Origin: an uncultured Pseudomonadota bacterium
Lineage (GTDB): Bacteria > SAR324 > NAC60-12
Direction of reading: 5' to 3'
Length of the DNA stretch: 13,719 bases
Assembly (NCBI GenBank): GCA_913020725.1
Contig: CAJWCD010000104.1
Span: 1 to 13,719 of the forward strand
The notes beneath the pieces were generated by a model. That model made no database searches, was not told where the DNA came from, and saw nothing but the letters and a program-made list of their open reading frames with translations. The position numbers were made by a program, and so were the translations under genes. Below are positions 1 through 13,719 of the stretch, one piece after another (within the stretch, counting starts at the first letter, position 1; each line of letters opens with the position of its first letter).

Positions 1-2
1 TG

Positions 3-53
3 CACAAGCTCAGGAGCGACTTCCCCATCGAGGCATGGCTCAAGGCGGCATGA
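3..53 (+). CDS. Possible 3' end of a CDS entering from the left edge (..HKLRSDFPIEAWLKAA*), product unknown, possibly a transposase
   Basis: Open frame from 3 to TGA at 51-53 with GC-rich third positions (cac aag ctc agg agc gac ttc ccc atc gag ...). Only 16 codons are visible, so it cannot be identified. Confidence 0.4.
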   Translation, partial: HKLRSDFPIEAWLKAA

Positions 54-169
54 ACTCCGAAACCGAAACGGAAAAACTCCGCGCCGACTCACGCACTTAT
101 TTGCGATAAGGGCTATTGGGTTTCCTGAAGCAGGTAAAATGGTTTGGAGAATTAGGCGGTGGCGGACAC

Positions 170-198
170 ACTCCAACTGGAATGAACCCATTTGGAGT
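170..198. terminator. Imperfect hairpin, possible terminator downstream of the yyaL-like gene
   Basis: ACTCCAA (170-176) pairs with TTGGAGT (192-198), plus inner TGG/CCA. It lies 27 bp past the stop at 226. No clear U-tract on the minus strand. Confidence 0.3.
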
Positions 199-225
199 AG
201 GGTTTTACAGCAATTCTAAACAAAC

Positions 226-2310
226 TCAAGCACGGCTTTGCAACTGTGTTCGTAACTCGTCCGGCGTGTGGACCGGCAGTTGGCAGGCGAAGTTTTGGCA
301 GACGTAGGCGGTGGCGTGTCCATTGAGGGCGGTGCGGCCTTGAGCAAGTGGAATCACAGAAGCAACGGAGGCGTCCTCACCAACCGGGACGAAAGCGGTG
401 ACGGTGTTCGGATGGAACTCGCGCCGCACAACGGAGAGCAGACTTTCGGTTTCCGGCTCTCCGCGAGTGCCCGCGATCACGATCTCCCGGATTCCGGAGC
501 GGTGTGCGTGGAGAGCTTGTAGCATCGCGGCAAAGCTGGGTCCGGCCTGTTGGAGATGTCCGCTGAACCCGGAGAGGATGCGTAGCCCGCTTTCTAGAAA
601 CTCCGCATTTCCGGTGCAGGCATGGAGCCGCAGGAACGCTTGCGCGGCAGAGCTATTCCCGGAAGGTTCCACACCATCGTAACCTTCCGCACTGCGCATC
701 AGCAACCGTTCGGCATCCTCGCCTGTGTCAAAGTACGCCCCCTCGTCATTCCGGAACAACCGATCCACTTCCTCCATCAACTCCTGCGCCTTGCGGAACC
801 ACCCCACATGGTAGGTCGCTTCGTAGAGATCAAGGCAGGCGACGGCAAGCTGGGCGTGATCCACGAGATACGCTGGAAAGCGGGATTCGCCCTCGCGCCA
901 ACGCCGCAAGAGCCGTCCGGAGTCCTCCCGCAAATGCTGAAACACGAACTCGGCGGCAGCAACCGCCAGCGCCTCGTAGTGTGGCTCGTCCAGAATCCGG
1001 GAAGCGCGGGCAAAGGCGGAGATCATCAGCGCGTTCCACGAGGTCAGCACCTTGTCGTCACAAAGCGGACGGATGCGGTGGCTCCGGGCTTCCAGCAGCT
1101 TTTGCCGCGCCTCGGCCAAGTTCTGGTTCAACTCATCGACTGAAATGCCAAGTTGTTCGGCAACTTCGGTTTCACTTTTGGGGCGATTTGGAATGCTGCT
1201 ACCCTCGAAATTTCCGGAATCGCTGATGTCCCAAAATGCACAGGCTCGTTCCGCGAGTTCCGGCCTCAAAATCTCGCGCACCTCGCTTGGTGTCCAGACG
1301 TAGAACTTGCCCTCCACGCCCTCGCTGTCCGCATCCTCTGCCGAAAAAAACGCACCTTCGGGCGAACGCATGTCCCGCTCAATGTAGGCCAGCACGTCCC
1401 GCGCACCAGCGGCGTAAACGTCCTTGCCCGTCACCTGATGCGCCTCCAGCAAGGCCCACACGAACAGCGCGTTGTCGTAGAGCATCTTCTCGAAGTGCGG
1501 CACCAGCCATTCGTAGTCGGTGCTGTAGCGGCTCAAACCGCCGCCAATCTGATCGTAGATGCCGCCCGCCAGCATCTTCTGGAGCGTGTGTTCCGCCATC
1601 TCCAGCGACTCCGGATTGTCGGTGCGGACATGGTGCCGCAGCAGCAGTTGCAGCCCCATGCTGGGCGGAAACTTGTTCTGCGGCTGAAGCTGAAAACCGC
1701 CGTGGTCCGGATCGTAGCTTTTGCGGTAGTATTCAGCCGTGACCTCTTCCGCTTCCCAGCCGGGCAGGGAAGCTCCCGAGCCTTGCGGCTCAGCGTTGTG
1801 CTGGAGGTGCCCCAGCAGATCCCCGGCCACCTGTTCGAGCTTGCCGCGATCCCCACGCCAGAGTTGCACAAGCTTTTCCAGCACCGTCCGGAACGAGGGG
1901 CGTCCGTAGAGTTCGCGGGGCGGGAAGTAGGTGCCGCCCGTGATGGGCCGCCCGTCCGGAAGCACAAACATGTTGAGCGGCCAACCACCCTGCTGGCCAA
2001 GCCCGTGCAGCGCATCCATGTGTAGCTTGTCCACGTCCGGGCGTTCCTCGCGGTCCACCTTGATCGGCACAAAGTGCGCGTTCAGGAACGCGGCCAGTTC
2101 CGGATCCTCGAAGGATTCCCGCTCCATGACATGGCACCAGTGGCAGGTCGCGTAGCCGATGCTCACCAGCACCAACTTGTCCTCCACTTTTGCCTGGGTA
2201 AACGCCTCCGGACCCCACGGCTGCCAGTCCACCGGATTGTGGGCGTGCTGGAGCAGGTAGGGGCTTTTCTCGTGGATCAGGCGGTTGCTGAACTCAGGTG
2301 AGCTGGACAT
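226..2310 (-). CDS. Thioredoxin domain-containing protein, YyaL/SPATA20 (DUF255) family with C-terminal six-hairpin glycosidase-like domain
   Basis: Family signatures [77 protein letters not shown] and [13 protein letters not shown] chose the ATG at 2310 (MSSSPEF) because the track start at 2370 overlaps leuB. Confidence 0.93.
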
Positions 2311-2321
2311 GGAGCGTTGTC

Positions 2322-3401
2322 TCAGAGCGATTCCAGTGCCTTGAGGACGAGGTCCCCCATCTGCTGGCAACCGACGAGCGTTTTGCCTGCGGACATGATG
2401 TCGCCCGTGCGGTGCGTTTCGATGGTCTGCACGACTGCCTGCTGGATCAACTCATCCGCTTCGGTGAGGTCGAAGGAGTAGCGGAACATCATGCCGACGG
2501 AGAGGATGGTGGCGAGCGGGTTCGCCTTGTCCTGTCCGGCGATGTCCGGGGCACTACCGTGGACCGGTTCGTAGAGGCCGATGCTACCGCCCACGCTGGC
2601 GGAGGGCAACATGCCGATGGAACCGGTCAGCATCGCCGCCGCGTCGCTGAGGATGTCCCCGAACATGTTGGTCGTGACCACCGTGTCGAATTGCTTGGGG
2701 TCGCGGATGAGTTGCATGGCGGCATTATCAACGTACATGTGGTTCAACTCCACGTCCGGATAGTCCTTGGACATGTCCACCACCACATCCCGCCACAGTT
2801 CCGTGGTTTCCAGCACGTTGGCCTTGTCCACCGAGGTGAGGCGATTACCGCGTTTTTGTGCCGTTTCAAAGCCGACCTTGGCAATACGCCGGATTTCGGA
2901 CTCGGAGTACACCAGCGTGTTGCGTCCGATGCGCTCGCCGTTTTCGGTGGTGACCCCACGCGGCTGACCAAAATAGATGCCACCCGTGAGTTCACGGATG
3001 ACCATGATGTCCGTGCCTTCCACCACCTCGCGCTTGAGCGTGGAAGCGTCCACGAGATCCCCGTAGATGACTGCCGGGCGCAGGTTTGCGTAAAGCTGGA
3101 GTTCCGAGCGCAGCTTGAGCAGTCCGCGCTCCGGACGCACCGAAAAATCCAGCGGCTCCCACTTGGGACCGCCCACCGCCCCTAGCAGAATCGCATCGGC
3201 AGCCTTGCAGGCGGCTAGGGTTTCGTCCGGAAGCGGAGTCCCGGCAAGATCGTAGGCGGTGCCGCCCACGGGGTGTTCGCTCAACTCCAGTTGCAGGCCA
3301 AAGCGCGAGGCGACGGCCTGCATCACCTGCACGGCCTGTTCGGAAACGTCCGGACCAATTCCGTCTCCGGGGGTCACTGCAATCTTCTTTGTACTACTCA
3401 T
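2322..3401 (-). CDS. leuB: 3-isopropylmalate dehydrogenase
   Basis: [65 protein letters not shown] and NPLATILS motifs; 359 aa. Confidence 0.97.
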
Positions 3402-3434
3402 GGAAATCCTGATTTGAGTTTTGGTTTAGAGGGC

Positions 3435-3464
3435 TTGTCTCCGCAAGTCTGCGGCAATTATTAT
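3435..3464 (+). promoter_or_regulatory. Putative sigma70 promoter for the glutamate synthase family gene
   Basis: TTGTCT (3435-3440), 18 bp spacer, TATTAT (3459-3464). It overlaps the opposite-strand -10 element. Confidence 0.4.
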
Positions 3465-3487
3465 AAATAATGACGAAAAGGCGTGAA
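3460..3487 (-). promoter_or_regulatory. Putative sigma70 promoter for leuB-yyaL
   Basis: On the minus strand: TTCACG (3487-3482), 16 bp spacer, perfect TATAAT (3465-3460), about 60 bp upstream of the leuB ATG in an AT-rich intergenic region. Confidence 0.55.
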
Positions 3488-3546
3488 TATTGCGATTATT
3501 GCATGTCAGACCATGTTGAAACAATTAACCTTCAAGAGAAAATAAT

Positions 3547-5118
3547 ATGCGCAATTTGTTCTGGCAGTTCACGGTGCTTGTGATCGCGGTCAACGCCATT
3601 CTTGCGGCCATCGGCTATCCGGGCGTCCTGTGGTCGCTGATCATCCTTGGTCCGATCATCCTACTAGGAATTCAAGATATCTTCCAGACCCGACATTCCA
3701 TTCTGCGGAATTTTCCGGTTCTCGGACACTTCCGATTCTTCTTTGAGGAGATCCGTCCGGAAATTCACCAGTACTTCGTGGAGTCCGACACTGACGGGGT
3801 GCCGTTCAACCGGCAGCAACGCACGGTGGTTTACCAACGGGCCAAGAACATCCGGGATACGGTGCCCTTCGGAACCGAGCGTGATGTGTACGCCGTCGGC
3901 TACGAATGGGTGAACCACTCGATCACAGCACGGCACATGGAGGCGAAGGACATTCGCATCACTGTTGCCGGTCCAGACTGCAAGCAGCCCTATTCCGCAA
4001 GCCTCCTCAACATTTCGGCAATGAGCTACGGTGCACTTAGTCAGAACGCAATCCGCTCGCTCAACCTTGGCGCCAAACTGGGCAATTTCTGCCACAACAC
4101 GGGCGAGGGGGGAATCAGTCCCTACCACCTTCAAGGCGGTGATCTCACTTGGCAGATTGGCACAGCCTATTTCGGATGTCGCACCAAGGAGGGGCAGTTC
4201 AATCCGGAAACTTTTCAGATGCGGGCGAAAACTCCAAGCGTCAAGATGATCGAGCTCAAGCTCTCGCAAGGGGCCAAACCTGGACATGGGGGCATTCTGC
4301 CCGCCGCCAAACTCACCAAGGAAATCGCGGAAATCCGGGATGTGCCGATGGGTCACGATGTGGAATCACCTCCGGGACACTCTGCGTTCTCAACGCCCAA
4401 AGGCTTGATTGAGTTTGTCGCTCAACTCCGGGAGTTGTCCGACGGCAAACCGGTCGGCTTCAAGCTCTGCATAGGCAAGCGCCGCGAATTTCTGGCGATC
4501 TGCAAAGCGATGCTCGAAACGGGCGTGACTCCGGATTTCATCACTGTGGATGGGGGTGAGGGGGGAACCGGTGCAGCACCACTGGAGTTCACCAACACGA
4601 TTGGCGCCCCGTTGATCGAATCCTTGATTCTCGTCAACAACGCGCTGGTGGGCTGCAATCTTCGGGACCGCATCCGCATCATTTGCAGTGGAAAAGTCAC
4701 CACGGGATTCGACATCATCAAACGCCTCGCACTGGGAGCCGATCTCTGCAACGCTGCTCGCGGCATGATGATGGCGGTTGGCTGCATTCAGGCGCAGAAG
4801 TGCAACACCAACGAATGCCCCGTAGGTGTGGCGACGACCAATCCCATGCTCATGAAAGGACTTGTACCTGCTGACAAGTCGCAACGGGTGTACAATTTCC
4901 ACCGCAACACCGAGCGCAGTGTCTGCGAGATGATGGGAGCGATGGGGCTTGCAAACACAGAAGACTTGCGCCCTTGGCATGTCATGCGGCGCGTCAGCGT
5001 TTCTGAAATCCGGAACTACTCTGAACTCTACGAGTTTCTGGAACCCGGAGCTCTCCTCAATAATCCGCCAGAATCCTACGCACGGGCGTGGAATGCTGCA
5101 TCGGCAGAGTCCTTCTGA
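3547..5118 (+). CDS. FMN-binding glutamate synthase family protein (stand-alone GltB FMN domain with hydrophobic N-terminus)
   Basis: NISAMSYGALS, HNTGEGG, IELKLSQGAKPGHGGILP, DFITVDGGEGGTGAAP and the Fe-S motif GCIQAQKCNTNECPVG. There is no glutamine amidotransferase domain. The first ~40 residues are hydrophobic. Confidence 0.93.
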   Translation: MRNLFWQFTVLVIAVNAILAAIGYPGVLWSLIILGPIILLGIQDIFQTRHSILRNFPVLGHFRFFFEEIRPEIHQYFVESDTDGVPFNRQQRTVVYQRAKNIRDTVPFGTERDVYAVGYEWVNHSITARHMEAKDIRITVAGPDCKQPYSASLLNISAMSYGALSQNAIRSLNLGAKLGNFCHNTGEGGISPYHLQGGDLTWQIGTAYFGCRTKEGQFNPETFQMRAKTPSVKMIELKLSQGAKPGHGGILPAAKLTKEIAEIRDVPMGHDVESPPGHSAFSTPKGLIEFVAQLRELSDGKPVGFKLCIGKRREFLAICKAMLETGVTPDFITVDGGEGGTGAAPLEFTNTIGAPLIESLILVNNALVGCNLRDRIRIICSGKVTTGFDIIKRLALGADLCNAARGMMMAVGCIQAQKCNTNECPVGVATTNPMLMKGLVPADKSQRVYNFHRNTERSVCEMMGAMGLANTEDLRPWHVMRRVSVSEIRNYSELYEFLEPGALLNNPPESYARAWNAASAESF

Positions 5119-5141
5119 TTTCTGGGAATTAAACGAGAACG

Positions 5142-5168
5142 CCCGGAGTTCCGGAAAGGAACTCCGGG
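5142..5168. terminator. Strong hairpin between convergent genes, probable bidirectional terminator
   Basis: CCCGGAGTTCC (5142-5152), GGAAA loop, GGAACTCCGGG (5158-5168): a perfect 11-bp stem between the stops at 5118 and 5181. On the minus strand it is followed by a moderately U-rich GTTCTCGTTTAATT. Confidence 0.75.
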
Positions 5169-5180
5169 GCGAGACGGGAA

Positions 5181-6272
5181 TTAGAAATCGTCTTCGATCA
5201 TTTCCAACTCCTCAGACATGTCGAGATCATCCTCAAGCAGTCCGGGGTCGGGTGCCGTAGCAATGGGATCGGAGGCCACTGCTGCCGCCATTGCGTCTGT
5301 GACAGGATCACCATCGGCATTGAAGCGTGTGAGGACGCTTTGAGCCACTGAGGAAAGGTGTACGGGGCGGGTCAGGAAGTCCGATGCTCCGGCATTGAGG
5401 CCACTGAGCCGGTGTTCCAGACTCACGGGTCCGGCGAGGCAGATCACGGGAACGCTAGGAAAGGCATCTCGGGTTTGCCGCAGCGTGTCCAGCGACTCTT
5501 CTCCAGCGTGACCCTGCCACTCCATGATCACCATGTCCACAGGATCGATTTTCATCAGCCGCCAGAGGTTTTGCTTCTTGCTGACAGCTTCAACCTCAAA
5601 CCCGGTGCGGCCCGTCAAATACTCCTTCAGCAATCCAGAGTGTTCCTGATTCTCTCCAAGGATGATCACGCTGCGGCCTTCAAAGCTTCGCGAGTCCATG
5701 CCTTCGACATTGAGTGACGGGCTCCCTCTCTGATCGTCTATATCCGGAGCAGCCCCGTTGACGCCTTCGTCATCGGGGACTTCATCCTCATCGAGCGAAA
5801 TGAACTCGTCTTCATCGGCCGCGGCGTCGAGGTCGTCCTCGGAAAGATCATCCAGCCAGTCTTCCTCGTCCTCTAGGTCCAGACTCGGCTCGGCCTGCGC
5901 GGGTTCCGGAGGAGCAGAGGTTGTTTCTGTCCCCTCTTTCTCAAAGGCATCAGGGTAGTCTTCCCCGGACACATCGATGATGTACTGCCGTAGCTGCTCT
6001 TGCTCTTCCGGAGTGATCTCGATGAACTGGACCGCCGACTGGTAGTACCACTCGATGGGCCAGCACCAGCGGACTTTTCCGGAGACTTCAAAATCCGGAC
6101 GGAAAGCGATAGTGATCCGTTCGCCGTCGGAAAGCGGGTGTTCGCAGTGAAAGCGAACCCCATTGAGGGAAACGTCCAAACCGGTGGCAACGGGGTCCGT
6201 CCATTCCTTGGTGCGAACCTCAATCGTCTCTTCGAAGAGGACTCTGAGATATTGTCGTCGCTCTGCGCCCAT
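5181..6272 (-). CDS. PilZ domain / acidic linker / atypical receiver-domain protein
   Basis: N-terminal RRQYLR (RxxxR) and DVSLNG (DxSxxG) are PilZ motifs. Residues ~200-316 follow the CheY-like pattern (SVIIL..GFEV..PVDMVIME..PVICLA..AGASDFLTRP). The linker and tail are very acidic. Confidence 0.85.
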   Translation of the reverse strand: MGAERRQYLRVLFEETIEVRTKEWTDPVATGLDVSLNGVRFHCEHPLSDGERITIAFRPDFEVSGKVRWCWPIEWYYQSAVQFIEITPEEQEQLRQYIIDVSGEDYPDAFEKEGTETTSAPPEPAQAEPSLDLEDEEDWLDDLSEDDLDAAADEDEFISLDEDEVPDDEGVNGAAPDIDDQRGSPSLNVEGMDSRSFEGRSVIILGENQEHSGLLKEYLTGRTGFEVEAVSKKQNLWRLMKIDPVDMVIMEWQGHAGEESLDTLRQTRDAFPSVPVICLAGPVSLEHRLSGLNAGASDFLTRPVHLSSVAQSVLTRFNADGDPVTDAMAAAVASDPIATAPDPGLLEDDLDMSEELEMIEDDF

Positions 6273-6280
6273 GAGAAAAC

Positions 6281-7075
6281 TCAGCGGTTAGTTGTCCGGG
6301 AAACCATCCTTGGCGTACCCGAATCCGGAGCCGGATCATCCGTTCGGTGCCGATTACAAATCCGCATTTGAGGTGTGCTCGATCCCGGAGACAAGGTCCA
6401 CACTGCCAAGGCAACACGGTTGTCCGGATTCAGCACCTCCCAATACGCTTTGACGATTCGATCGCCTTCGCCCTCCAATGGAAACCACAGAGGGAGCCTA
6501 GCAAAGCTGGGAAGCGGGTTGCCGTCCCCTTGGTAAGTGGTCAACCCGTGACCCAAACCAGAGGCAGGTGCAGGATAGCAGAAGAAGTGATGCTCTGACA
6601 ACTCTGGATTCCTGCCGCAACTCCGAATCAACGCAAGCCGGAGGGGGGATTCCAAATCTTCGGGATGCAAGCATCCCGCGATGCGGGGAGTCAGATTTGG
6701 AACGTCCGGCTCGTGGCGTTCACTATGGAGCGTCTCTTCAAAGGTCGTGCCGTTTTCCCATCCGCGCACCACTCGATCTGTGTGATCGCCGTTGCTGACC
6801 ACGGTTTTTCCCTGAAAAACCCGGAGGGCGTTGTAGATGATCAGGGTGGGGTCTTCGAGTTTGGCGGGGTCGGCGGCTTCGGTGTGAAGCCGTCCGTTGT
6901 TCTCAAGCAAAATCCGGTTGCGGCTGTTACGGCTACGCCCCATCAGCCAGTACACAATTGTCCACTCTCCAGCCGTGTTGCGCCCAAGAATTAGCCCCCG
7001 TCCCGGATAGGTGTTCTCGGCCAGATGCCGCTGGAGATTGGCAGTCGCTTCCGTGTGCAAAGCCTCAAAACTCAT
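6281..7075 (-). CDS. PurO-like IMP cyclohydrolase family protein
   Basis: YPGRGLILG, YWLMGRSRNSRNR, LIIYN, SNGDHTD, EPDVPNLTPRIAG, TYQGDGNPLPSF and LNPDNRVAL match the stand-alone IMP cyclohydrolase family as I recall it. Start placed at ATG 7075 (11-bp overlap with rng); the alternative is 7093. Confidence 0.85.
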   Translation of the reverse strand: MSFEALHTEATANLQRHLAENTYPGRGLILGRNTAGEWTIVYWLMGRSRNSRNRILLENNGRLHTEAADPAKLEDPTLIIYNALRVFQGKTVVSNGDHTDRVVRGWENGTTFEETLHSERHEPDVPNLTPRIAGCLHPEDLESPLRLALIRSCGRNPELSEHHFFCYPAPASGLGHGLTTYQGDGNPLPSFARLPLWFPLEGEGDRIVKAYWEVLNPDNRVALAVWTLSPGSSTPQMRICNRHRTDDPAPDSGTPRMVSRTTNR

Positions 7076-8537
7076 ACAACTCGAACTGCTCATGATGCAG
7101 CGAAGCCAGCGGTTTCACGACCAGTGGCTGTCCCACCAGCCGCTCGACCGCTTGCATGGATTGCTGCTCTTCCTTTTCAAGATGGCTGTAGACATCTGGA
7201 TGGACGTACACGACCATTGAACCTTGACTCCCGTATTTGCAGGTGCGCTGGATCTCCCGGAAGATCTCGTAGCTAATCGTGGAAGGCGACTTGACGCGCC
7301 CAAACCCGTCACAATACGGGCAGGGGTCACAGAGGTAGCGATTGAGGTTCTCCCGATCCCGTCGCCGCGTCATCTCCACCAACCCCATCTCGCTGATCTC
7401 GAGGATCTTGCTGCGGGCCTTGTCGGAGCGGAGTTGGTTCTTGAGGGTCTCGTACACCAATTTTCGATGCTCCGGGGACTCCATGTCAATGAAATCGATG
7501 ATGATGATGCCACCAATGTTGCGAAGTTTCAGTTGGTAAACGAGTTCCTCGATGGCTTCAAGGTTGGTGCGCACAATCGTCTTCTCATGACTCTCCTTGC
7601 CGACGAAGCGCCCGGTGTTGACGTCAATCGCTGTCAATGCCTCTGTTTGATCAATGACGAGGTGACCTCCGGAGCGTAGCCAGACTTTTTGCGCGAGGGC
7701 GCGGTCAATCTCCACCTCGATCCCATAGTAATCAAAGATTGGAGTGCGCCGGTTGTAATGCTCGACAATGGAGTTGTAGCGCGGTAGGTACGAGCGCACG
7801 AAAGAGCGGACATCCTGATACTGCTGTTTCTCGTCCACCACCAGTCGCCGCACGTCTGGAGAGAAAACGTCCCGGAGGGTGCGGAACACCACGTTGAGGT
7901 CAGAGTGCAGCAGGGCGGGCGCTTTCGTGATTTTGTAGCGTTCCTGAATGTCCTCCCAAAGCGAGACGAGGTAGTTGATGTCGGAATGAAGGTCTTCTTC
8001 GAAAGCCCCCTCAGCAACCGTCCGGATGATGAATCCTCCAGATTTGGGGCGGAGTCGTTCGACAATTCCCTTCAGCCGCACCCGTTCGTCATCTTCCAAG
8101 ATTTGGCGGGAAACCCCCAGCGTGCGGGAAGTGGGCATGTACACCAAGTGACGGCCCGGCAGCGAAATGTGGCTGGTGATGCGAGAGCCTTTTGTGCCGA
8201 TTGGTCCCTTGGAAACCTGAACGAGCACATCCTGCCCCTCTTTGAGCATAGAGGCGATGTCCTCGCGTTCCCGACGCTTGGAGTGCGTGGTTCCATCCAG
8301 CAGTTCGCTTTCGTCAATCAGATCGCCAACGTAGAAAAATGCAGCACGTTCGGCACCAATTTCGACAAACGCGGACTCCATGCCGGGTAGTACTTTGACC
8401 ACCTTGCCCTTGTAAATATTGCCTACAATGCGCTGCTCTTGGCCGCGTTCGTAGTGCAACGCAGAGAGAGTGCCGTTCTCCAGCACCGCCACACGGGTTT
8501 CGTGTGGCGCATGATTGATAACGATGTCCTTGGTCAT
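7065..8537 (-). CDS. rng: Ribonuclease G (Rne/Rng family)
   Basis: S1 domain GNIYKGKVVKVLPGMESAFV, catalytic TEALTAIDVNTG and IIIIDFIDM, and the CPYC Zn-link. At 490 aa it has no RNase E scaffold tail. Confidence 0.93.
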   Translation of the reverse strand: MTKDIVINHAPHETRVAVLENGTLSALHYERGQEQRIVGNIYKGKVVKVLPGMESAFVEIGAERAAFFYVGDLIDESELLDGTTHSKRREREDIASMLKEGQDVLVQVSKGPIGTKGSRITSHISLPGRHLVYMPTSRTLGVSRQILEDDERVRLKGIVERLRPKSGGFIIRTVAEGAFEEDLHSDINYLVSLWEDIQERYKITKAPALLHSDLNVVFRTLRDVFSPDVRRLVVDEKQQYQDVRSFVRSYLPRYNSIVEHYNRRTPIFDYYGIEVEIDRALAQKVWLRSGGHLVIDQTEALTAIDVNTGRFVGKESHEKTIVRTNLEAIEELVYQLKLRNIGGIIIIDFIDMESPEHRKLVYETLKNQLRSDKARSKILEISEMGLVEMTRRRDRENLNRYLCDPCPYCDGFGRVKSPSTISYEIFREIQRTCKYGSQGSMVVYVHPDVYSHLEKEEQQSMQAVERLVGQPLVVKPLASLHHEQFELYEF

Positions 8538-8564
8538 TCGTTTAGAAAGAGACAGTTGTGGGCG

Positions 8565-9296
8565 TCAGGATTGGGGAGTCGCCTCCCGGATCACCTTCAG
8601 CATTTCGCGCACGGCTTCGGAAATACCAGTGAAAACACTACGGCTGATGATGCTGTGTCCAATGTGCAACTCCCGGAGCTGCGGAAGCTGGCAAATTTGA
8701 CGAGTGTTGTGGTAGTTGAGCCCGTGCCCGGCGTTGACCTGCAAACCTGCTGCGTGCGCCTCGAGTGCGGCTTGGTGCAGACGAGCTAACTCCTGCTCGA
8801 TGCTTTCTGGAGCGTTCGCGTTCGCGTAGCTTCCCGTGTGCAGTTCAACAACCTCGGCACCCAACGCTTGGCTGGCTTCGATTTGCTGGGAATCCGGATC
8901 GATGAACAGGCTGACGTGAATGCCCGCGTCCTTGAGCTTGCGGATGCCGTCCTTCATCACTCCCGACGCTCCTGCTGCATCCAGCCCGCCTTCTGTCGTG
9001 ATTTCCTCGCGGAGTTCCGGAACCAGCATGACGATATCCGGTTTCACCTCCAGCGCGATTCCAAACATTTCCGCTGTTGCCGCCATTTCCAGATTGAGCC
9101 GAGTCTGGATGGTTTTCCGGAGGATGTGAACGTCGCGGTCCAGAATGTGCCGACGATCCTCACGCAGGTGGATTGTGATGCCGTGCGCACCAGCCAGTTC
9201 CACAAGCGCAGCGGCAGTGACTGGATCGGGCTCGATGGTCCGGCGGGCTTGCCGGACCGTGGCGATGTGATCAACGTTGACGTGCAGAAAAATCAC
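8565..9296 (-). CDS. pdxJ: Pyridoxine 5'-phosphate synthase
   Basis: VNVDHIATVRQAR, GITIHLREDRRHI, TTEGGLD, VSLFID, VELHTG, NAGHGL and IGHSII motifs. GTG start at 9296. Confidence 0.96.
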   Translation of the reverse strand: MIFLHVNVDHIATVRQARRTIEPDPVTAAALVELAGAHGITIHLREDRRHILDRDVHILRKTIQTRLNLEMAATAEMFGIALEVKPDIVMLVPELREEITTEGGLDAAGASGVMKDGIRKLKDAGIHVSLFIDPDSQQIEASQALGAEVVELHTGSYANANAPESIEQELARLHQAALEAHAAGLQVNAGHGLNYHNTRQICQLPQLRELHIGHSIISRSVFTGISEAVREMLKVIREATPQS

Positions 9297-10257
9297 TTGA
9301 TTGAACTCGCTGTTTGAGTTTTTCAGATTTCTCCAGTGTCTCCTTTTTCACCCAAAGGGAAATGGGAGGCCATTGCTCCAGAATGTTCACCTCTTCCGGA
9401 AGGATCGGGGCGGGTTTCACCTTGTTGTAAACGCCAGGCTTGTACTTGCGCAGATCAATCACCCCGTAAAGCCCGGAGGCATTCAGGCTCTTAACCACCT
9501 CAGCAGGGCCTTCGACGAAAATGTTGAAGACGTTCGGATTGATCACGCTGACATAGGCCGTATTTCGGAGGTACACGGGCACATTGTCAAACCGTTTCTT
9601 GACGGGCAAGCTCCGCAGGTTCACCTGTGCAGTGTAGAACTCCACCCCCTCGTCCAGAATCTGCAAACTGTGCGGCGGCAAGTCGAGTTGGATGATCATC
9701 TCGGTGCTGTGATTCAATTCGCTCAAGTCGATCACCATCGTCGCCACGGTTTCGAGGGAGGCCAGTTGTGACTTAGCACCCCGGACTCGCACGAATGATG
9801 GCGTGATCTCGATGGAATCGAGCAGGAAGCCCTTCTGTACCTCTCCTTGGCGACGAACCTGCACCGGCAGGGTTTTCTCGATCAGTTCCTCGATGGAGAG
9901 CATGACCTTTGGCGGAGTGATCCGGGTGATGTGGATATCTACCGGGGCAGTGATGTTGCTCTCGGTCAACACATACTCCACCTGCCCGTCCTGCGCTGTG
10001 CTGAGGTCTATGATCGCCTGAACGGCCAGAGGATTGAGGCTGCCTCCGCGATTCTTGGTTCGCGCTGAGATGTTCACTTGTGGGGGATCAGACGAAACCT
10101 GAAAATTCTGGGGTAGGTTCTTGAACACCACGGGCACAAAAAAACTCATCTGGATTGGATCGCCCACCTGCTTGGCGAGGTACCACACGAACAGTGCTAG
10201 CAGGATCGACAGTCCCTTGAATCCTAGGTTTTCTGAGAACCATGACAAACGCGGCAT
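9271..10257 (-). CDS. cdaR: CdaR/YbbR family membrane-anchored regulator of diadenylate cyclase
   Basis: ENLGFKGLSILLALFVWY N-terminal TM, repeated beta-rich YbbR units ending in IDLS/IDLS/IDLR, and position directly downstream of cdaA. Start is ATG 10257 or TTG 10260. Confidence 0.85.
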   Translation of the reverse strand: MPRLSWFSENLGFKGLSILLALFVWYLAKQVGDPIQMSFFVPVVFKNLPQNFQVSSDPPQVNISARTKNRGGSLNPLAVQAIIDLSTAQDGQVEYVLTESNITAPVDIHITRITPPKVMLSIEELIEKTLPVQVRRQGEVQKGFLLDSIEITPSFVRVRGAKSQLASLETVATMVIDLSELNHSTEMIIQLDLPPHSLQILDEGVEFYTAQVNLRSLPVKKRFDNVPVYLRNTAYVSVINPNVFNIFVEGPAEVVKSLNASGLYGVIDLRKYKPGVYNKVKPAPILPEEVNILEQWPPISLWVKKETLEKSEKLKQRVQSSDFSARQR

Positions 10258-10261
10258 CAAC

Positions 10262-11143
10262 TTAGCTGGTGGCGGGGTTGGCTTGGGTGGCGTGCGCTGT
10301 CTCGGCGTCTTCCGGCAGTACGGGTGACACAGAATCGTCGCCGTTCACAAGTTTTTCCGATCCAGGAAGTTCGGTGAGCTTTCCGGAGAGTAAATCGAGA
10401 ATAAGCGGACGGAGTTGCCGGCCTTGATTGCGGAGGATGCTGCCCCGGCAGCAGAGGCTGATTTCACGGCGTTCTTCGGAGACCACCAAAACCACGGCAT
10501 CGCTTTCTTCGGTGACACCGACGGCAGCACGGTGTCGGGTACCCAAATCCTCACCCAGTCGAGTGTTCATCGAAACCGGCAGGATGCACCGAGCGGCCGC
10601 CAACACACCTTTGGGGCTCAGCACGACTGCGCCGTCATGCAGTGGAGAGGTGGGGGCGAAGATGCTCAGCAACAAGGGTTCGCTGACCTCGGCATTGAGT
10701 GTGGTGCCGCGATCAGTGTGGTTGCGCAACCCGACTTCGCGCTCAAAAACGATGAGTGCACCAATCCTCCGGCGCGCCATCGTTTCGCACGTCTGCAGCA
10801 CGGTGTCCACAATCGTTTGCTGTTTGGATCCATGATCCCGGAACATTGTGAACAACCCAAACTGCGCAAGCGCATTCCGGATGTCGGCCTGAAACAACAC
10901 AACCACCACCAATACGAGGGAGTTCGCCAGATTGTCCAGCAGTAGCAGGGTGGCCTCGAGTTGCAGGGCGAGAGAAAGCACATACAACCCCAGCAACAGC
11001 GAGAAGCCGAGTAGCATGGAGATTGTCCGGGTGCCCTTGATGAGGATGAGCAACCGGTAAAAGATCAGGCTGAGGAGCAGGAGGTCAATGAGGTCTGGCC
11101 ACTGAAGATCGAGGTTCTCGACAAACGTGGCAACGGGACTCAC
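10262..11143 (-). CDS. cdaA: Diadenylate cyclase CdaA (DisA_N/DAC domain with N-terminal TM helices)
   Basis: Hydrophobic N-terminus with IKGTR and VVLFQADIRNAL, then IGALIVFER, SPLHDGAVV, LGTRHRAAVG and VVSEE. Both the DGA and RHR catalytic motifs are intact. GTG start. Confidence 0.94.
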   Translation of the reverse strand: MSPVATFVENLDLQWPDLIDLLLLSLIFYRLLILIKGTRTISMLLGFSLLLGLYVLSLALQLEATLLLLDNLANSLVLVVVVLFQADIRNALAQFGLFTMFRDHGSKQQTIVDTVLQTCETMARRRIGALIVFEREVGLRNHTDRGTTLNAEVSEPLLLSIFAPTSPLHDGAVVLSPKGVLAAARCILPVSMNTRLGEDLGTRHRAAVGVTEESDAVVLVVSEERREISLCCRGSILRNQGRQLRPLILDLLSGKLTELPGSEKLVNGDDSVSPVLPEDAETAHATQANPATS

Positions 11144-11193
11144 AAGAACAGGTCGGGAATGCGGTTGAGTGGTTGTTCAGTTTGCGACTGCGA

Positions 11194-12990
11194 TCATGCG
11201 GGTGCGGGCTGACGCAGGCTTTGAGCAACTTCCTCTCCGCCCACGGTCTCCTTCTCAATCAGGGTTTGGGCGAGGTGCTCCAAGGCTTGATAGTTTTCCT
11301 TGAGGATGGTGCTGGCGCGGTCGTAGCACTCGGTGAGGATGCGCAGCACCTCCTCGTCAATCATACGCGAAGATTCGTTGCTGAAGCCTTTGTGGCGCTG
11401 GAGATCCCGCCCCAAAAACACCTGCCCAGGATTTTCTGTGTAGGAGACTGGACCGAGTTTCTCGTTCATCCCCCACTGGCAGACCATCTTGCGGGCCAGT
11501 TCAGTCGCCTTCTTGAGATCGTCACTGGCCCCGGTTGTGAATTGTTGGAAGACCAACTGCTCGGCAGCGCGTCCACCCATGATCATCGAAATCTGGCTCA
11601 ACAATCCCCTGCGGTTGTAGCTGTGGCGGTCCTCTTCGGGTAGCAGTTGCGTGACTCCAAGCGCCCGTCCTCGTGGGATGATTGTGACCTTGTGGACGGG
11701 GTCGCATTCCGGAAGTGAAACGGCGACCAACGCGTGTCCAGCCTCGTGGTAGGCGGTGGTGCGTTTTTCATCATCCGTGATGACCATGCTCCGGCGTTCG
11801 CCGCCCATCAGCACCTTGTCCTTGGCGTACTCGAAATCGGTCATGTCCACCTTGTCCTTGTCGTTGCGCGCGGCCCAGAGCGCCGCTTCGTTGGCAAGGT
11901 TGGACAAGTCGGCTCCGGTGAATCCGGGAGTGCCACGGGCAATCACCTGAAGGTCCACCTCCTCGCCCAACTCCATTTCCCCGGTGTGGACCTTGAGGAT
12001 GTTCTCGCGCCCCTGCACGTCCGGACGTGGCACCACCACATGTCGATCAAAGCGCCCTGGACGCAGCAAGGCAGGATCAAGCACGTCCGGACGATTTGTT
12101 GCCGCAACGACGATGATGCCCTCGTTGGGGGTAAAGCCGTCCATTTCGACGAGCAACTGGTTGAGGGTCTGCTCGCGCTCGTCGTTGCCACCACCTAGTC
12201 CGGCCCCTCGGCTACGGCCCACGGCGTCGATTTCATCAATGAAGATGATGCAGGGCGAGTGCTTCTTGCCCTGCTCAAAGAGATCCCGGACACGGCTCGC
12301 GCCCACGCCGACGAACATCTCCACAAAATCCGAGCCGCTGATGCTGAAGAACGGCACCTCCGCCTCCCCGGCAATCGCCTTGGCAAGCAGAGTTTTGCCC
12401 GATCCTGGATCGCCCATCAGCAAGACGCCACGCGGAATCTCGCCGCCCAATTTCTCAAATTTTTGCGGATCGGAGAGAAAGTCCACAATCTCCGAGACTT
12501 CCTCCCGTGCTTCGTCAATGCCCTGCACGTCTGCGAAAGTGATGGTGTTCTCACCTTTCTCCAGCATCCGCGCCCGGACTTTCCCAAAACTCATTGCCCG
12601 ATTCCCGCCGCCTTGCACCTGCCGCATGAAGAAGAGCCAGATGCCGATGATGAGCAGCATCGGGAGCCAACTGTTGAGGATCGCGAAGAAAAGATTGCCC
12701 TGATCCGGAGGCTCCACGCGCACTCGCACCTGATGGTGCTCCAGCAGTTCAAAAAGCGCGGGGTAGTTCGGCACCTGCGTCTGGAAGTGCCCATTGGTGT
12801 CGCTCACGCCGATCACTTGGCGTTCACGCAAGGTGACTTCCAGCACACTTCCGGATTCAACTTGGGTGATGAAGTCAGAGAAGGAGAGTTGGCGTTCTTC
12901 GGACTGGCGGTTGCCGAGCACATTGAAGAGCAGCAACATCACCATGCCGATGACGAGCCAGATGCCCAAATTCCGCATGAAGTTGTTCAT
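11194..12990 (-). CDS. ftsH: ATP-dependent zinc metalloprotease FtsH
   Basis: Two N-terminal TM segments, Walker A GDPGSGKT, pore FVG, Walker [31 protein letters not shown], and zinc motif HEAGH. Confidence 0.98.
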
Positions 12991-13110
12991 GCCTGTTTCT
13001 GAGAAAGGTTTTTACGGATGCTTGTTAAGCGTAGAACTTCTCAAGTTTATCTGAAGATCGTCCCACATTGACCACAGAAAGGCAAGCACTGGATCAAGCT
13101 GCTTGAAAAA

Positions 13111-13626
13111 CTATGTTCCAATACTTTGAATTGCATCCGTTTCGGACGTTGCTCGGAACAGCAGCACGGTGGCTTGTGCGGCGATTCCTTCTTCGCGTCC
13201 CGTGAAACCGAGGCGTTCCGTGGTGGTGGCTTTTACAGACACGCGATCAAGTGCAACCCGGAGGGCATGGGCAAGCTTCGCCCGCATCTGCGGGATATGA
13301 GGAGCGAGTCTGGGGCGCTGCGCGATCACGATGCAGTCGAGGTTGCCGCAGATATAGCCGTGCTTCCGGACGAGCGTTTCCACCTCGCAGAGCAACGCGA
13401 GGCTGTCCGCACCCTTGTAACGGGGGTCGGTGTCTGGAAAATGCTGGCCGAGGTCGCCGAGCGCAAGGGCACCGAGCAAGGCATCCATCACGGCATGGCT
13501 GAGGACATCGGCGTCGGAGTGGCCCTCCAGCCCGCGATCATGGGGAATCTCGACCCCGCTGAGAATGAGCTTACGGCCTGCGGCAAAGGCGTGAACGTCA
13601 AATCCGCTTCCGATTCGAAAAGGCAT
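13111..13626 (-). CDS. ispF: 2-C-methyl-D-erythritol 2,4-cyclodiphosphate synthase
   Basis: [31 protein letters not shown] and [22 protein letters not shown] motifs. ATG at 13626 (MPFRIG) matches the family N-terminus. Confidence 0.96.
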
Positions 13627-13719
13627 CAGCAAAGGCAAATGAGGGTTCGTGGACAGTCTAAACTTGATGGTCTCGCAAGAACCCAAGGGCACCGACTTCT
13701 GAAAAAATTCGGATGCTCA

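Follow-up and report, generated by a model that had tools for sequence, protein, structure and literature searches.

TCCGGA, a highly iterated palindrome of a SAR324 lineage, and the helical spacing of its copies

The highly iterated palindromes (HIPs) of cyanobacteria are the closest known kind of sequence to the one described here. The best-known member, HIP1 (GCGATCGC), is reported as 15- to 300-fold over-represented in cyanobacteria. In the account of Elhai (Elhai 2015, PMC4390886), each HIP is accompanied by a methyltransferase for the word or for an inner word, and deviations from HIP1 are biased to its first and last letters. A later study (Xu, Lawrence and Durand 2018, PMC5861425) describes HIP1 sites as more conserved than control palindromes, the codons inside the motif as more conserved than those outside it, and HIP1 periodicity on a scale of 10-90 kb. 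The present case is the hexamer TCCGGA in a 13,719-nucleotide stretch of DNA (CAJWCD010000104.1, positions 1 to 13,719, called the window below), which is contig C104 of the genome of an uncultured SAR324 bacterium (GCA_913020725.1, G000 in our set, called the source genome below). TCCGGA lies in another phylum than the HIP family and adds to it a helical spacing rule.

The likeness to HIP1 and the alternate HIPs is broad. Like them, TCCGGA is a short palindrome, rich in GC, whose great abundance extends to every reading frame and to the DNA between genes. It is also lineage-specific, with gains, losses and replacement among relatives, and nucleoid structure is suspected as its role, as it is for HIPs. 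The differences begin with the word itself, which has six letters instead of the eight of HIP1 and occurs outside cyanobacteria. Neither TCCGGA nor the term "helical" occurs in the Elhai text (PMC4390886). We found no paper that joins SAR324 with TCCGGA or iterated palindromes with helical spacing, and the supplements of HIP papers could list other words or taxa. No paper among the leading literature matches for TCCGGA describes it as a word that is abundant in a genome.

In the window, TCCGGA occurred exactly 40 times. Dinucleotide-preserving shuffles of the window gave a mean of 5.25 copies (standard deviation 2.07, maximum 12), and none of the 200 shuffles reached the observed count. The 11 complete open reading frames (ORFs) held 39 of the copies, with 7, 7 and 25 in codon phases 0, 1 and 2. 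One-off variants were common, including CCCGGA (19), TCCGGG (17), TCCGGC (13) and TCCGGT (5). The original prediction, which had counted about 40 copies by hand, placed them in all 11 complete genes and all three codon phases and called the one-off variants common, was accurate on each of these points.

The enrichment extended over the whole source genome (3,446,541 bp in 204 contigs, 56.8% GC, 93.3% complete) and was not confined to the window. The assembly carried 7,675 copies, about one per 450 bp, and TCCGGA headed the 4,096 hexamers in raw count as well as in the ratio of observed to expected copies under base composition (7.35). This is about 7x, against the 15- to 300-fold of HIP1. Most of the other 6-bp palindromes were depleted 3- to 20-fold against base composition. 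The proposal of a genome-wide, frame-independent, HIP1-like iterated palindrome was borne out. The second most over-represented palindrome was TGATCA, at 2.6x in the source genome and 3.3x in the sample of a genome of the same genus (G001). Copies of TCCGGA were spread in a near-Poisson manner (mean 11.5 and standard deviation 3.7 per 5-kb window, 1,032 windows), and their density was even along genes. The few TCCGGA-poor stretches were of lower GC, which agreed with the predicted depletion in islands. The clearest of them, at about 8,000-18,000 of contig C12 (48% GC), was nearly without TCCGGA. Its genes specify a flotillin, an ABC transporter of the branched-chain type that is either fused to an amidase or lies before one, and an AMP-binding enzyme of the acyl-CoA-ligase type. 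This low-GC stretch was probably acquired later than the rest of the genome.

The ratio of observed to expected copies fell with the order of the Markov model, from 6.5 (order 1) to 3.4 (order 2), 2.4 (order 3) and 1.00 (order 4). An order-3 model already fixes TCCG, CCGG and CGGA, and an order-4 model fixes TCCGG and CCGGA. The proposed enrichment thus persisted at 2.4x with the three 4-letter sub-words controlled, and was gone once the two 5-mers were fixed. TCCGG and CCGGA were themselves the most over-represented 5-mers, at 1.56 under their own maximal-order model, and CCGG alone reached only 1.3x. The order-4 ratio of 1.00 means that, given CCGG, the preceding T and the following A are independent of each other (each 51%). 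Relative to such a model of independent flanks, CCCGGG (0.27) and GCCGGC (0.51) were avoided. As among HIPs, one-letter variants were enriched at the outer letters, with CCCGGA/TCCGGG at 1.67x under the order-3 model. Beyond the word, the flanks were flat apart from T at -1 and A at +1 (36% each). A longer repeat element, of the repetitive extragenic palindrome or miniature inverted-repeat transposable element kind, was ruled out by these flat flanks beyond +/-1 and by the lack of a phased A/T pattern.

The excess was evident at the DNA level when proteins and codon usage were controlled. In a rough gene set of non-overlapping long ORFs (2,012 ORFs of at least 200 codons with coding-like GC by codon position, 2.57 Mb), we counted 6,146 copies, with 1,887, 1,125 and 3,134 in phases 0, 1 and 2. 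Shuffling synonymous codons within genes (n=20) left 1,796 copies (510, 528 and 758 by phase), and shuffling codon order (n=20) left 1,056 (332, 339 and 386). The excess over the synonymous shuffles was therefore 3.4x overall and 3.7x, 2.1x and 4.1x in phases 0, 1 and 2. In DNA outside any ORF of 80 codons (409 kb), 655 copies were found where 110 were expected (6.0x), and spacers of 20-150 bp held 142 against 24 expected (5.85x). The predicted survival of the enrichment under codon control was thus observed. Among the codon contexts that could take the word without changing the protein, 6,143 of 18,946 (32%) were occupied; by phase, the occupancy was 32%, 18% and 46%, where codon usage predicts 8%, 8% and 10%. 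Dipeptide use in the proteome was also shifted, with Ser-Gly at 1.48x, Pro-Glu at 1.63x and Pro-Asp at 1.38x, while the reversed dipeptides stood at 1.0x, 0.8x and 1.15x.

Between two genomes of one genus, individual copies were not conserved. We compared 400 kb of G001 with the source genome, in one genome pair, of which 296 kb aligned at 82.4% identity. TCCGGA was kept in G001 at 65 of 182, 36 of 111 and 102 of 270 coding sites in phases 0, 1 and 2 (36%, 32% and 38%), and at 55 of 127 non-coding sites. The conservation of all hexamers in the matching classes was 35.5%, 35.5% and 35.6% in the phases and 36.5% in non-coding DNA, so that at coding sites TCCGGA was kept no better than the average hexamer. 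With unchanged amino acids, 170 of 377 sites retained TCCGGA, compared with 137 predicted from how often the same codons persist outside the word (1.24x). In permissive contexts shared by both genomes (n=1,063), occupancy was 35.4% and 23.0%, with joint occupancy of 16.0% where 8.2% would be expected from independence. Among the 432 non-conserved sites, 212 differed at position 1 or 6 only, a bias to the outer letters like that of HIPs. The copies of the source genome stood opposite CCCGGA or TCCGGG 145 times, with 46 cases in the reverse direction, and opposite TCCAGA or TCTGGA 42 times, with 39 in reverse. Individual copies thus turn over about as fast as ordinary sequence, and sites are interchangeable. 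This is unlike HIP1, whose sites exceed their controls in conservation; the average-hexamer level and the 1.24x codon excess seen here come from a single genome pair with controls that differ from those of Xu and colleagues. The analysis as a whole showed a directional force on the DNA sequence as such, in the lineage of the source genome and in some phages, which acts on density and not on particular positions.

The most distinctive property of TCCGGA was the spacing between its copies. As the null, occupied permissive contexts were shuffled with all proteins and the number of sites per gene and phase fixed. Pair distances in the source genome were periodic at 10.5 bp, with an amplitude of 0.132 against a null mean of 0.019 and a null maximum of 0.048 (z = 12.7; 0 of 200 shuffles). 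Pairs at whole helical turns were nearly missing: at 20, 22 and 31 bp none was observed, where 9.5, 6.9 and 9.2 were expected, and at 43 bp one was observed where 9.6 were expected. Pairs at half turns were at expectation or slightly higher. The effect was strong from 8 to 60 bp, weaker from 60 to 112 bp, and gone beyond 112-164 bp. The spectral amplitude was 12.4 for TCCGGA and at most 3.0 for six control words. Cross-pairs of TCCGGA with TCCGGG (9.8) and with CCCGGA (6.6) followed the same 10.5-bp rule; those with TCCGGC (at most 1.8), GCCGGA (2.7), TCCAGA (2.3) and unrelated words did not. Because the rule is common to TCCGGA and its flank variants CCCGGA and TCCGGG, the unit that is read is YCCGGR. 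These data showed a pairwise interaction of copies that depends on double-helix geometry and that tolerates pyrimidine and purine at the outer letters in a base-specific way.

The rule recurred in relatives. In G001 (84 pairs), 7 pairs lay at whole turns against 22.9 expected, and 27 lay near half turns against 17.5. In G020, a genome of genus g2 (1.16 Mb, 3,376 sites, 39% occupancy), a period of 10.5-10.75 bp was likewise seen in the distances (z = 4.2-5.0; 0 of 300 shuffles). The maxima in G020 fell at 31-33, 41-42, 51-56 and 60-63 bp, where the genus of the source genome has minima, and its phase was about 0.4 turn off that of the source genome whatever period was assumed. A genome of genus g12 (G050, 188 kb, 115 pairs) leaned the way of G020, weakly (amplitude 2.4). 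The scale differs from the 10-90 kb periodicity of HIP1, in that a 10.5-bp period between neighbours with a genus-dependent phase was found here; the contigs of known length, at tens of kb, are too short for a 10-90 kb period.

Lambda repressor dimers and lac loops are familiar cases of cooperative binding at integral helical turns and of short DNA loops in vivo. They resemble the present case in that two sites interact in a way that varies with helical phase, at distances of a few turns and at most about 100-150 bp. The difference is that those systems use a handful of operators, and the rule for TCCGGA is written statistically over thousands of 6-bp copies across the genome. Among the options of the original prediction, a site for a nucleoid protein best fits the helical spacing rule; the protein that would read it was not found.

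These tests bear on two explanations that do without a reader. The first holds that TCCGGA is an unread by-product of codon, dipeptide or context-dependent mutation bias. It could appeal to the order-4 ratio of 1.00, to the frequency of TCC, GGA, CCG and CGG as codons, and to site conservation no better than that of the average hexamer. However, it is at odds with the 6x excess in non-coding DNA including short spacers, the 3.4x excess over synonymous shuffles, and the top rank of TCCGG/CCGGA among 5-mers in the maximal-order model. The trait also spans 40-62% GC, and a word-specific helical pair rule cannot stem from codon usage, since the null had fixed proteins. We regard this as the least probable of the explanations weighed here, already largely refuted by the shuffle and spacing tests. 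A codon or dipeptide artefact was likewise ruled out by the shuffles, the non-coding enrichment and the spacing null with fixed proteins.

The second explanation is intrinsic DNA mechanics, in which an anisotropically flexible or bent word would be favoured by selection on the bulk stiffness or curvature of the chromosome, with in-phase bends adding and no dedicated reader. The helical period of the pair effect and its fading at about one DNA persistence length (112-164 bp) are consistent with this, as are the interchangeable sites, the enrichment of phage DNA described below and the failure to find a reader. On the other hand, GCCGGA, TCCGGC and ACCGGA, which have the CCGG core with G/C or A/T flanks, obey the rule little or not at all. 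Adherence was confined to the variants with pyrimidine and purine flanks, which resembles base-specific reading. A purely physical property also leaves the neutral sister genera and the phase shift between genera unexplained, and no phased flank pattern was seen. We consider this explanation quite unlikely.

The trait varied widely among relatives. In a phylum survey of 88 genomes, we counted TCCGGA against its reversed word AGGCCT as the control. The ratio was at least 3 in 37 genomes, including 13 in which it was at least 10; it was 2-3 in 5 genomes, 0.5-2 in 34 and below 0.5 in 12. The genus of the source genome stood at 14-30, and genus g12 ranged from 1.6 to 32, a spread of about 20-fold inside one genus. 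All nine genomes of genus g3 were neutral (0.8-1.2), and family f2 stood at 0.1-2.0. A 1.6-Mb genome from another family reached 36, and several genera of family f7 were at 0.01-0.14. G066, g33 and g37 are further, independent rich lineages. The source names attached to a protein of 98% identity and to the nearest loci put the organism of the window in the SAR324 cluster. Among 80 loci with a relative of one window protein, TCCGGA was the top hexamer in the three closest metagenome-assembled genomes (57-62% GC) and also in two SAR324-like ones of 42% GC (11x and 13x), and most other phyla were near 1x. As a property of the lineage, the enrichment does not depend on GC and spans GC contents of 40% to 62%.

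Near-elimination of the word in some f7 genera appears to be of a different nature. Six avoiders (G081 and G083-G087, of genera g38 and g40-g43) carried 15-267 copies of TCCGGA against 1,435-1,882 of the control. In a 180-kb sample of G084, all CCGG words stood at 0.14x and other palindromes were also depleted, with GGATCC and ACGCGT almost absent. A cytosine-5 (C5) methylase was present in 5 of the 6 avoiders. Long-standing restriction-modification of the CCGG type or methyl-cytosine decay is the likely cause of the f7 avoidance. We rejected the idea that this avoidance mirrors the TCCGGA system for G084, the sole genome sampled, in which depletion of every CCGG word amounts to ordinary avoidance.

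Another explanation is a methylation-linked drive of the Elhai type, in which an orphan methyltransferase would modify TCCGGA or a sub-word, and methyl-dependent repair or nicking would select or create a high and even density. The original prediction had offered an orphan methyltransferase with biased repair as a cause, and it had noted correctly that the window encodes no candidate enzyme (by Pfam annotation of its ORFs). In the source genome, at 93.3% completeness, no match to a C5 methylase, Vsr or MutH was found, MutH being sought in this genome only. Across the survey, C5 methylases occurred in 33 of the 88 genomes, in none of three from the genus of the source genome, and only as fragments in g12 (3 of 18) and g2 (1 of 3). 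Few canonical N4/N6 methylases were seen in g1 and g12. Vsr was found in 14 of the 88 genomes, mostly beside C5 methylases; in the three richest genera it was limited to G001 and a fragment in one g12 genome. The Vsr match in G001 (C1:63124-63333) scored 110 bits, and G001 had no C5 methylase match. The words that a T:G product would leave, TCTGGA/TCCAGA, are transition neighbours of TCCGGA and stood at 1.8x without depletion; together with the lack of both genes in the source genome, this is unlike a Dcm/Vsr signature. A drive by C5 methylase and Vsr was therefore rejected for the rich lineages.

One orphan amino-methyltransferase-like ORF of 579 residues was found in the source genome on the minus strand of contig C49 (18035-19774, equal to 514-2253 of locus L081), between an EamA transporter gene on one side and a BacA gene on the other. 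It carries the motifs DPFxGxGT, for S-adenosylmethionine (SAM), and NPPY. Its family, variously named by the sources, is found mainly in SAR324, with DPFxGxGT and (S/N)PPY conserved. Of 41 relatives, 36 gave a match to the family, among them each of the four neutral g3 genomes that were searched and 15 of 16 from f2; no match was found in the enriched genomes G019 and G012. In a structural model, residues 1-158 are predicted to be disordered and the core has a predicted local distance difference test (pLDDT) score above 90. The modelled fold is about as similar to archaeal tRNA m2G methylases as to Dam/DpnM, with a target-normalised TM-score of at most 0.53. This methyltransferase-like protein was rejected as the driver: its presence does not track the trait, and its fold is ambiguous between the tRNA m2G and Dam types. 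A scan of 3,119 ORFs for (D/N/S)PP(Y/F/W/H) gave 40 carriers, of which 20 were taken to Pfam (the other 20 were short or had a terminal motif). Fifteen of the 20 were housekeeping or unrelated enzymes and five had no family. A type I HsdM fragment lay at a contig end. Where Elhai reports a cognate methyltransferase with each HIP, none was identified for TCCGGA; the candidates seen were the C49 orphan, whose target is not readable from sequence, and the cut HsdM fragment. CCGG-family restriction folds (Bse634I, NgoMIV) gave no match in the source genome, in searches that had no positive control.

The methylation-linked drive thus draws on a SAR324-wide orphan family with SAM and (S/N)PPY motifs and with Dam/DpnM among its best folds, on deviations biased to the outer letters as reported for HIP1 (Elhai 2015, PMC4390886; 212 of 432 flank-only here), and on the fit between selection on density and the absence of site conservation. 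Against it stand the presence of the family in neutral g3 and f2 and its failure to appear in G019 and G012, the equally good match of the modelled fold to tRNA m2G methylases, and the absent or fragmentary C5 genes in g1, g12 and g2. The other 19 motif carriers taken to Pfam were housekeeping proteins or had no match, TCTGGA/TCCAGA was not depleted, and repair biased in one direction cannot make both the A:T flanks and the G:C core. The helical rule and its shift are also left unexplained. We consider this drive unlikely, and the orphan methyltransferase with biased repair was not supported as the cause.

Chi sites of RecBCD and AddAB are non-palindromic and strand-oriented words. Like them, TCCGGA is a short word that is over-represented in the core genome in every frame and scarce in foreign DNA, and RecC, which is loosely co-distributed with the trait, is present. 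TCCGGA could be an orientation-free self mark of the Chi kind, where RecBCD or another nuclease would recognise TCCGGA and spare or repair the DNA that bears it, and phages would copy the mark. The source genome has a RecC match of 164.8 bits in a 1,321-residue frame on contig C157, and RecC was present in 35 of the 37 genomes with a ratio of at least 3. Of the genes followed as possible causes, RecC alone showed a suggestive pattern. Enriched genome G014, at 96% completeness, is a candidate for a genuine lack of RecBCD. In the phylum survey RecC was not found in any of 9 g3 and 19 f2 genomes, all neutral or avoiding. Two types of RecC were seen (loci L345-L396), of about 1,250 residues in most of family f1 and about 1,100 elsewhere. 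In genera g4 and g7 of f1, RecC is of the short type and falls within the f7 sequences, a placement that suggests a transfer. The 21 rows of the long f1 type from g1, g2, g5 and g12 were all enriched and formed one clade. Over the RecC tree there were at least 6-7 changes of trait state, and the short type mixed enriched, neutral and avoiding genomes.

Besides the RecC distribution, occurrence in all frames, depleted islands, site turnover and phage carriage would be expected of a Chi-type word. However, by FtsH identity g3 (70-75%) falls alongside the RecC-positive, weakly or non-enriched g9, g10 and g11 (72%), and the rich clade of g1, g2, g5 and g12 lies mostly at 75-80%. Because g3 is outside the rich clade on this measure, the RecC association can be inherited rather than causal. 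Many RecC-positive lineages are neutral or avoiding. The hexamer itself is palindromic and cannot be skewed, and its half-words, unlike oriented Chi sites, showed no skew (5,401 CCGGA against 5,304 TCCGG in 91 contigs; correlation of -0.08 with GC skew and -0.05 with gene strand). A scanner of single strands would not give a helical-phase rule of the duplex. We consider a Chi-like self mark distinctly unlikely.

The uptake sequences of Neisseria (DNA uptake sequence, DUS) and Haemophilus (uptake signal sequence, USS) are 9-12 nt long, non-palindromic and tied to a specific receptor. The likeness of TCCGGA to them lies in a frame-independent accumulation that shifts peptide composition (Ser-Gly 1.48x and Pro-Glu 1.63x, with 1.0x and 0.8x for the reversed pairs) and in a density near one per kilobase or higher. 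An uptake-like molecular drive, in which a competence receptor prefers word-bearing DNA and recombination spreads the word, would also fit the depleted islands and the presence of ComEC. Yet ComEC was found in 35 of 35 high-quality genomes, enriched or not. It is thus universal and uninformative and was rejected as a driver, and the suggestion of a DNA-uptake system gained nothing from it. TCCGGA differs from DUS and USS in being a 6-nt palindrome with flat flanks beyond +/-1, and a 6-mer discriminates little. The word also occurs in a phage genome that has terminal repeats, and the drive gives no account of the helical rule. It appears very improbable.

TCCGGA was also found in phages. A scan of viral contigs for three TCCGGA copies within short gaps gave at least 121 stretches. 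Among the matches listed, 11 of 80 viral loci with flanks had at least 15 sites at 5x or more, three sites per locus being present by construction. Viral records with TCCGGA carry portal, major-head, terminase and tape-measure genes, as in tailed phages, and of the six viral loci that were annotated, five had genes for a portal, head, terminase, tape-measure, tail-fibre, primase or endolysin. The remaining one (L248, of the 115-kb record G088) carries QueC-like and QueD-like genes of the 7-deazaguanine pathway. Copies of TCCGGA and of the control numbered 59 and 0 in a 32.7-kb record with terminal repeats, 104 and 5 in a 38-kb record classed as a provirus, 167 and 11 in G088, and 88 and 5 in the 249-kb record G089. 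Tailed-phage contigs thus carried TCCGGA at a host-like density. We rejected G089 as evidence for enrichment: 35 of its 88 sites lie inside 20 of its 249 kb, and the high local count comes mostly from this collagen-like tail-fibre stretch. Locus L269 of that record has giant collagen-like tail-fibre ORFs of 1,193 and 2,433 residues, whose repeats spell TCCGGA many times. Protein repeats of this type are a local enrichment that can mimic a genome-wide signal.

Our favoured explanation, which we hold tentatively and at somewhat less than even confidence, is that TCCGGA is kept dense by weak selection on thousands of interchangeable sites that are read by a putative dimeric DNA-binding protein. 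With the odds that a site is occupied shifted about 5-fold, the scaled selection coefficient per site would be about 1.6 (ln 5), a value in the range of codon-usage bias. Only very large populations would let selection this weak take effect. As one major groove can accommodate a 6-bp palindrome whose flanks are flat, the reader would be a compact symmetric dimer. Dimers on the same face of the helix may touch or add their bends, and this would be disfavoured in the genus of the source genome and favoured in g2. Phages may be selected to carry TCCGGA if the word marks DNA as resident. A broader version of weak selection with a dimeric reader is a sequence-specific chromatin grammar, in which an abundant putative protein reads a 6-bp word spaced at about 450 bp, the heritable helical phase is shifted nearly half a turn between genera, and phages copy the word to pass as resident. 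This extension is possible but doubtful.

Several observations weigh against the favoured explanation. No reader protein was found, and no tested gene tracks the trait cleanly. An intrinsic bend of TCCGGA could give the helical rule without a protein. Independent flanks suit additive reading of half-sites, but they suit two overlapping 5-mers equally well. No phased A/T pattern was present around TCCGGA out to 110 bp, and DNA wrapping would leave such a pattern. The 1.24x retention is below what a steady selection coefficient near 1.6 would predict. In the shared aligned DNA, the source genome had 690 copies and G001 451, so the system is not at equilibrium. Between the TCCGGA-rich phage contigs and the SAR324 DNA compared with them, no nucleotide match and only weak generic protein matches were found. 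Finally, the gene set was a greedy set of ORFs rather than a curated annotation.

The 11 ORFs of the window are ordinary housekeeping genes by Pfam search, and all but one lie on the minus strand. The yyaL-like ORF with a DUF255/thioredoxin domain (226..2370, minus strand, PF03190) has ten copies of TCCGGA, at 493, 750, 916, 1213, 1610, 1706, 1887, 1955, 2099 and 2207, read in this order as SG, FRN, SG, SG, NPE, DPD, FRT, LPD, DPE and GPE; the codon readings that had been quoted at 493, 750 and 1610 are right on the minus strand. An ORF of the isocitrate/isopropylmalate dehydrogenase family (Iso_dh, 2322..3401, minus strand, PF00180) has copies at 2755, 3130, 3226 and 3349, all in phase 2. The glutamate-synthase-domain ORF (3547..5118, plus strand, PF01645) has them at 3756, 4203 and 4530 in phase 2 and at 5009 in phase 1. 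The ORF with PilZ and response-regulator receiver domains (5181..6272, minus strand, PF07238 and PF00072) has copies at 5743, 5905, 6007, 6078 and 6094, the last two being 16 bp apart, or about 1.5 helical turns. Between these two convergent genes lies an inverted repeat with an 11-bp stem (5142..5168, CCCGGAGTTCC...GGAACTCCGGG). It contains the sole copy of TCCGGA outside the ORFs (5150-5155), as had been noted for this hairpin, together with the variants CCCGGA and TCCGGG. The repeat is probably a bidirectional terminator made in part of CCCGGA, TCCGGA and TCCGGG.

The remaining ORFs all lie on the minus strand. They comprise an IMP-cyclohydrolase-like ORF (6281..7093, PF07826; copies at 6324 and 6423), an ORF of the RNase E/G family (7065..8537, PF10150; 7668 and 8021), PdxJ (8565..9296, PF03740; 8893, 9016 and 9116), a YbbR-like ORF (9271..10260, PF07949; 9395), a diadenylate cyclase CdaA-like ORF (10262..11143, PF02457; 10382 and 10876), the FtsH protease (11194..12990, PF01434 and PF00004; 11708, 12020, 12086, 12704 and 12850) and IspF of the YgbB family (13111..13692, PF02542; 13365).

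BspEI/Kpn2I-type enzymes cut TCCGGA, and digestion of TCCGGA-rich genomes with them would be extreme. In practical terms, the word biases k-mer-based binning and could aid the assignment of phages to hosts. Highly iterated palindromes have been an unsolved puzzle of cyanobacteria for decades, and TCCGGA is a second, independent system in an abundant uncultured phylum of the ocean. It has properties that are missing from the cyanobacterial case, namely the 10.5-bp helical rule, the shift of this rule between genera, fast site turnover and carriage by phages. The variation of about 20-fold within one genus (1.6 to 32), together with the absence of the trait in sister genera, provides a natural comparative experiment. 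If a reader protein exists, TCCGGA would represent a new kind of genome-wide DNA-organising or self-marking system, one that measurably shapes codon choice and protein sequence.

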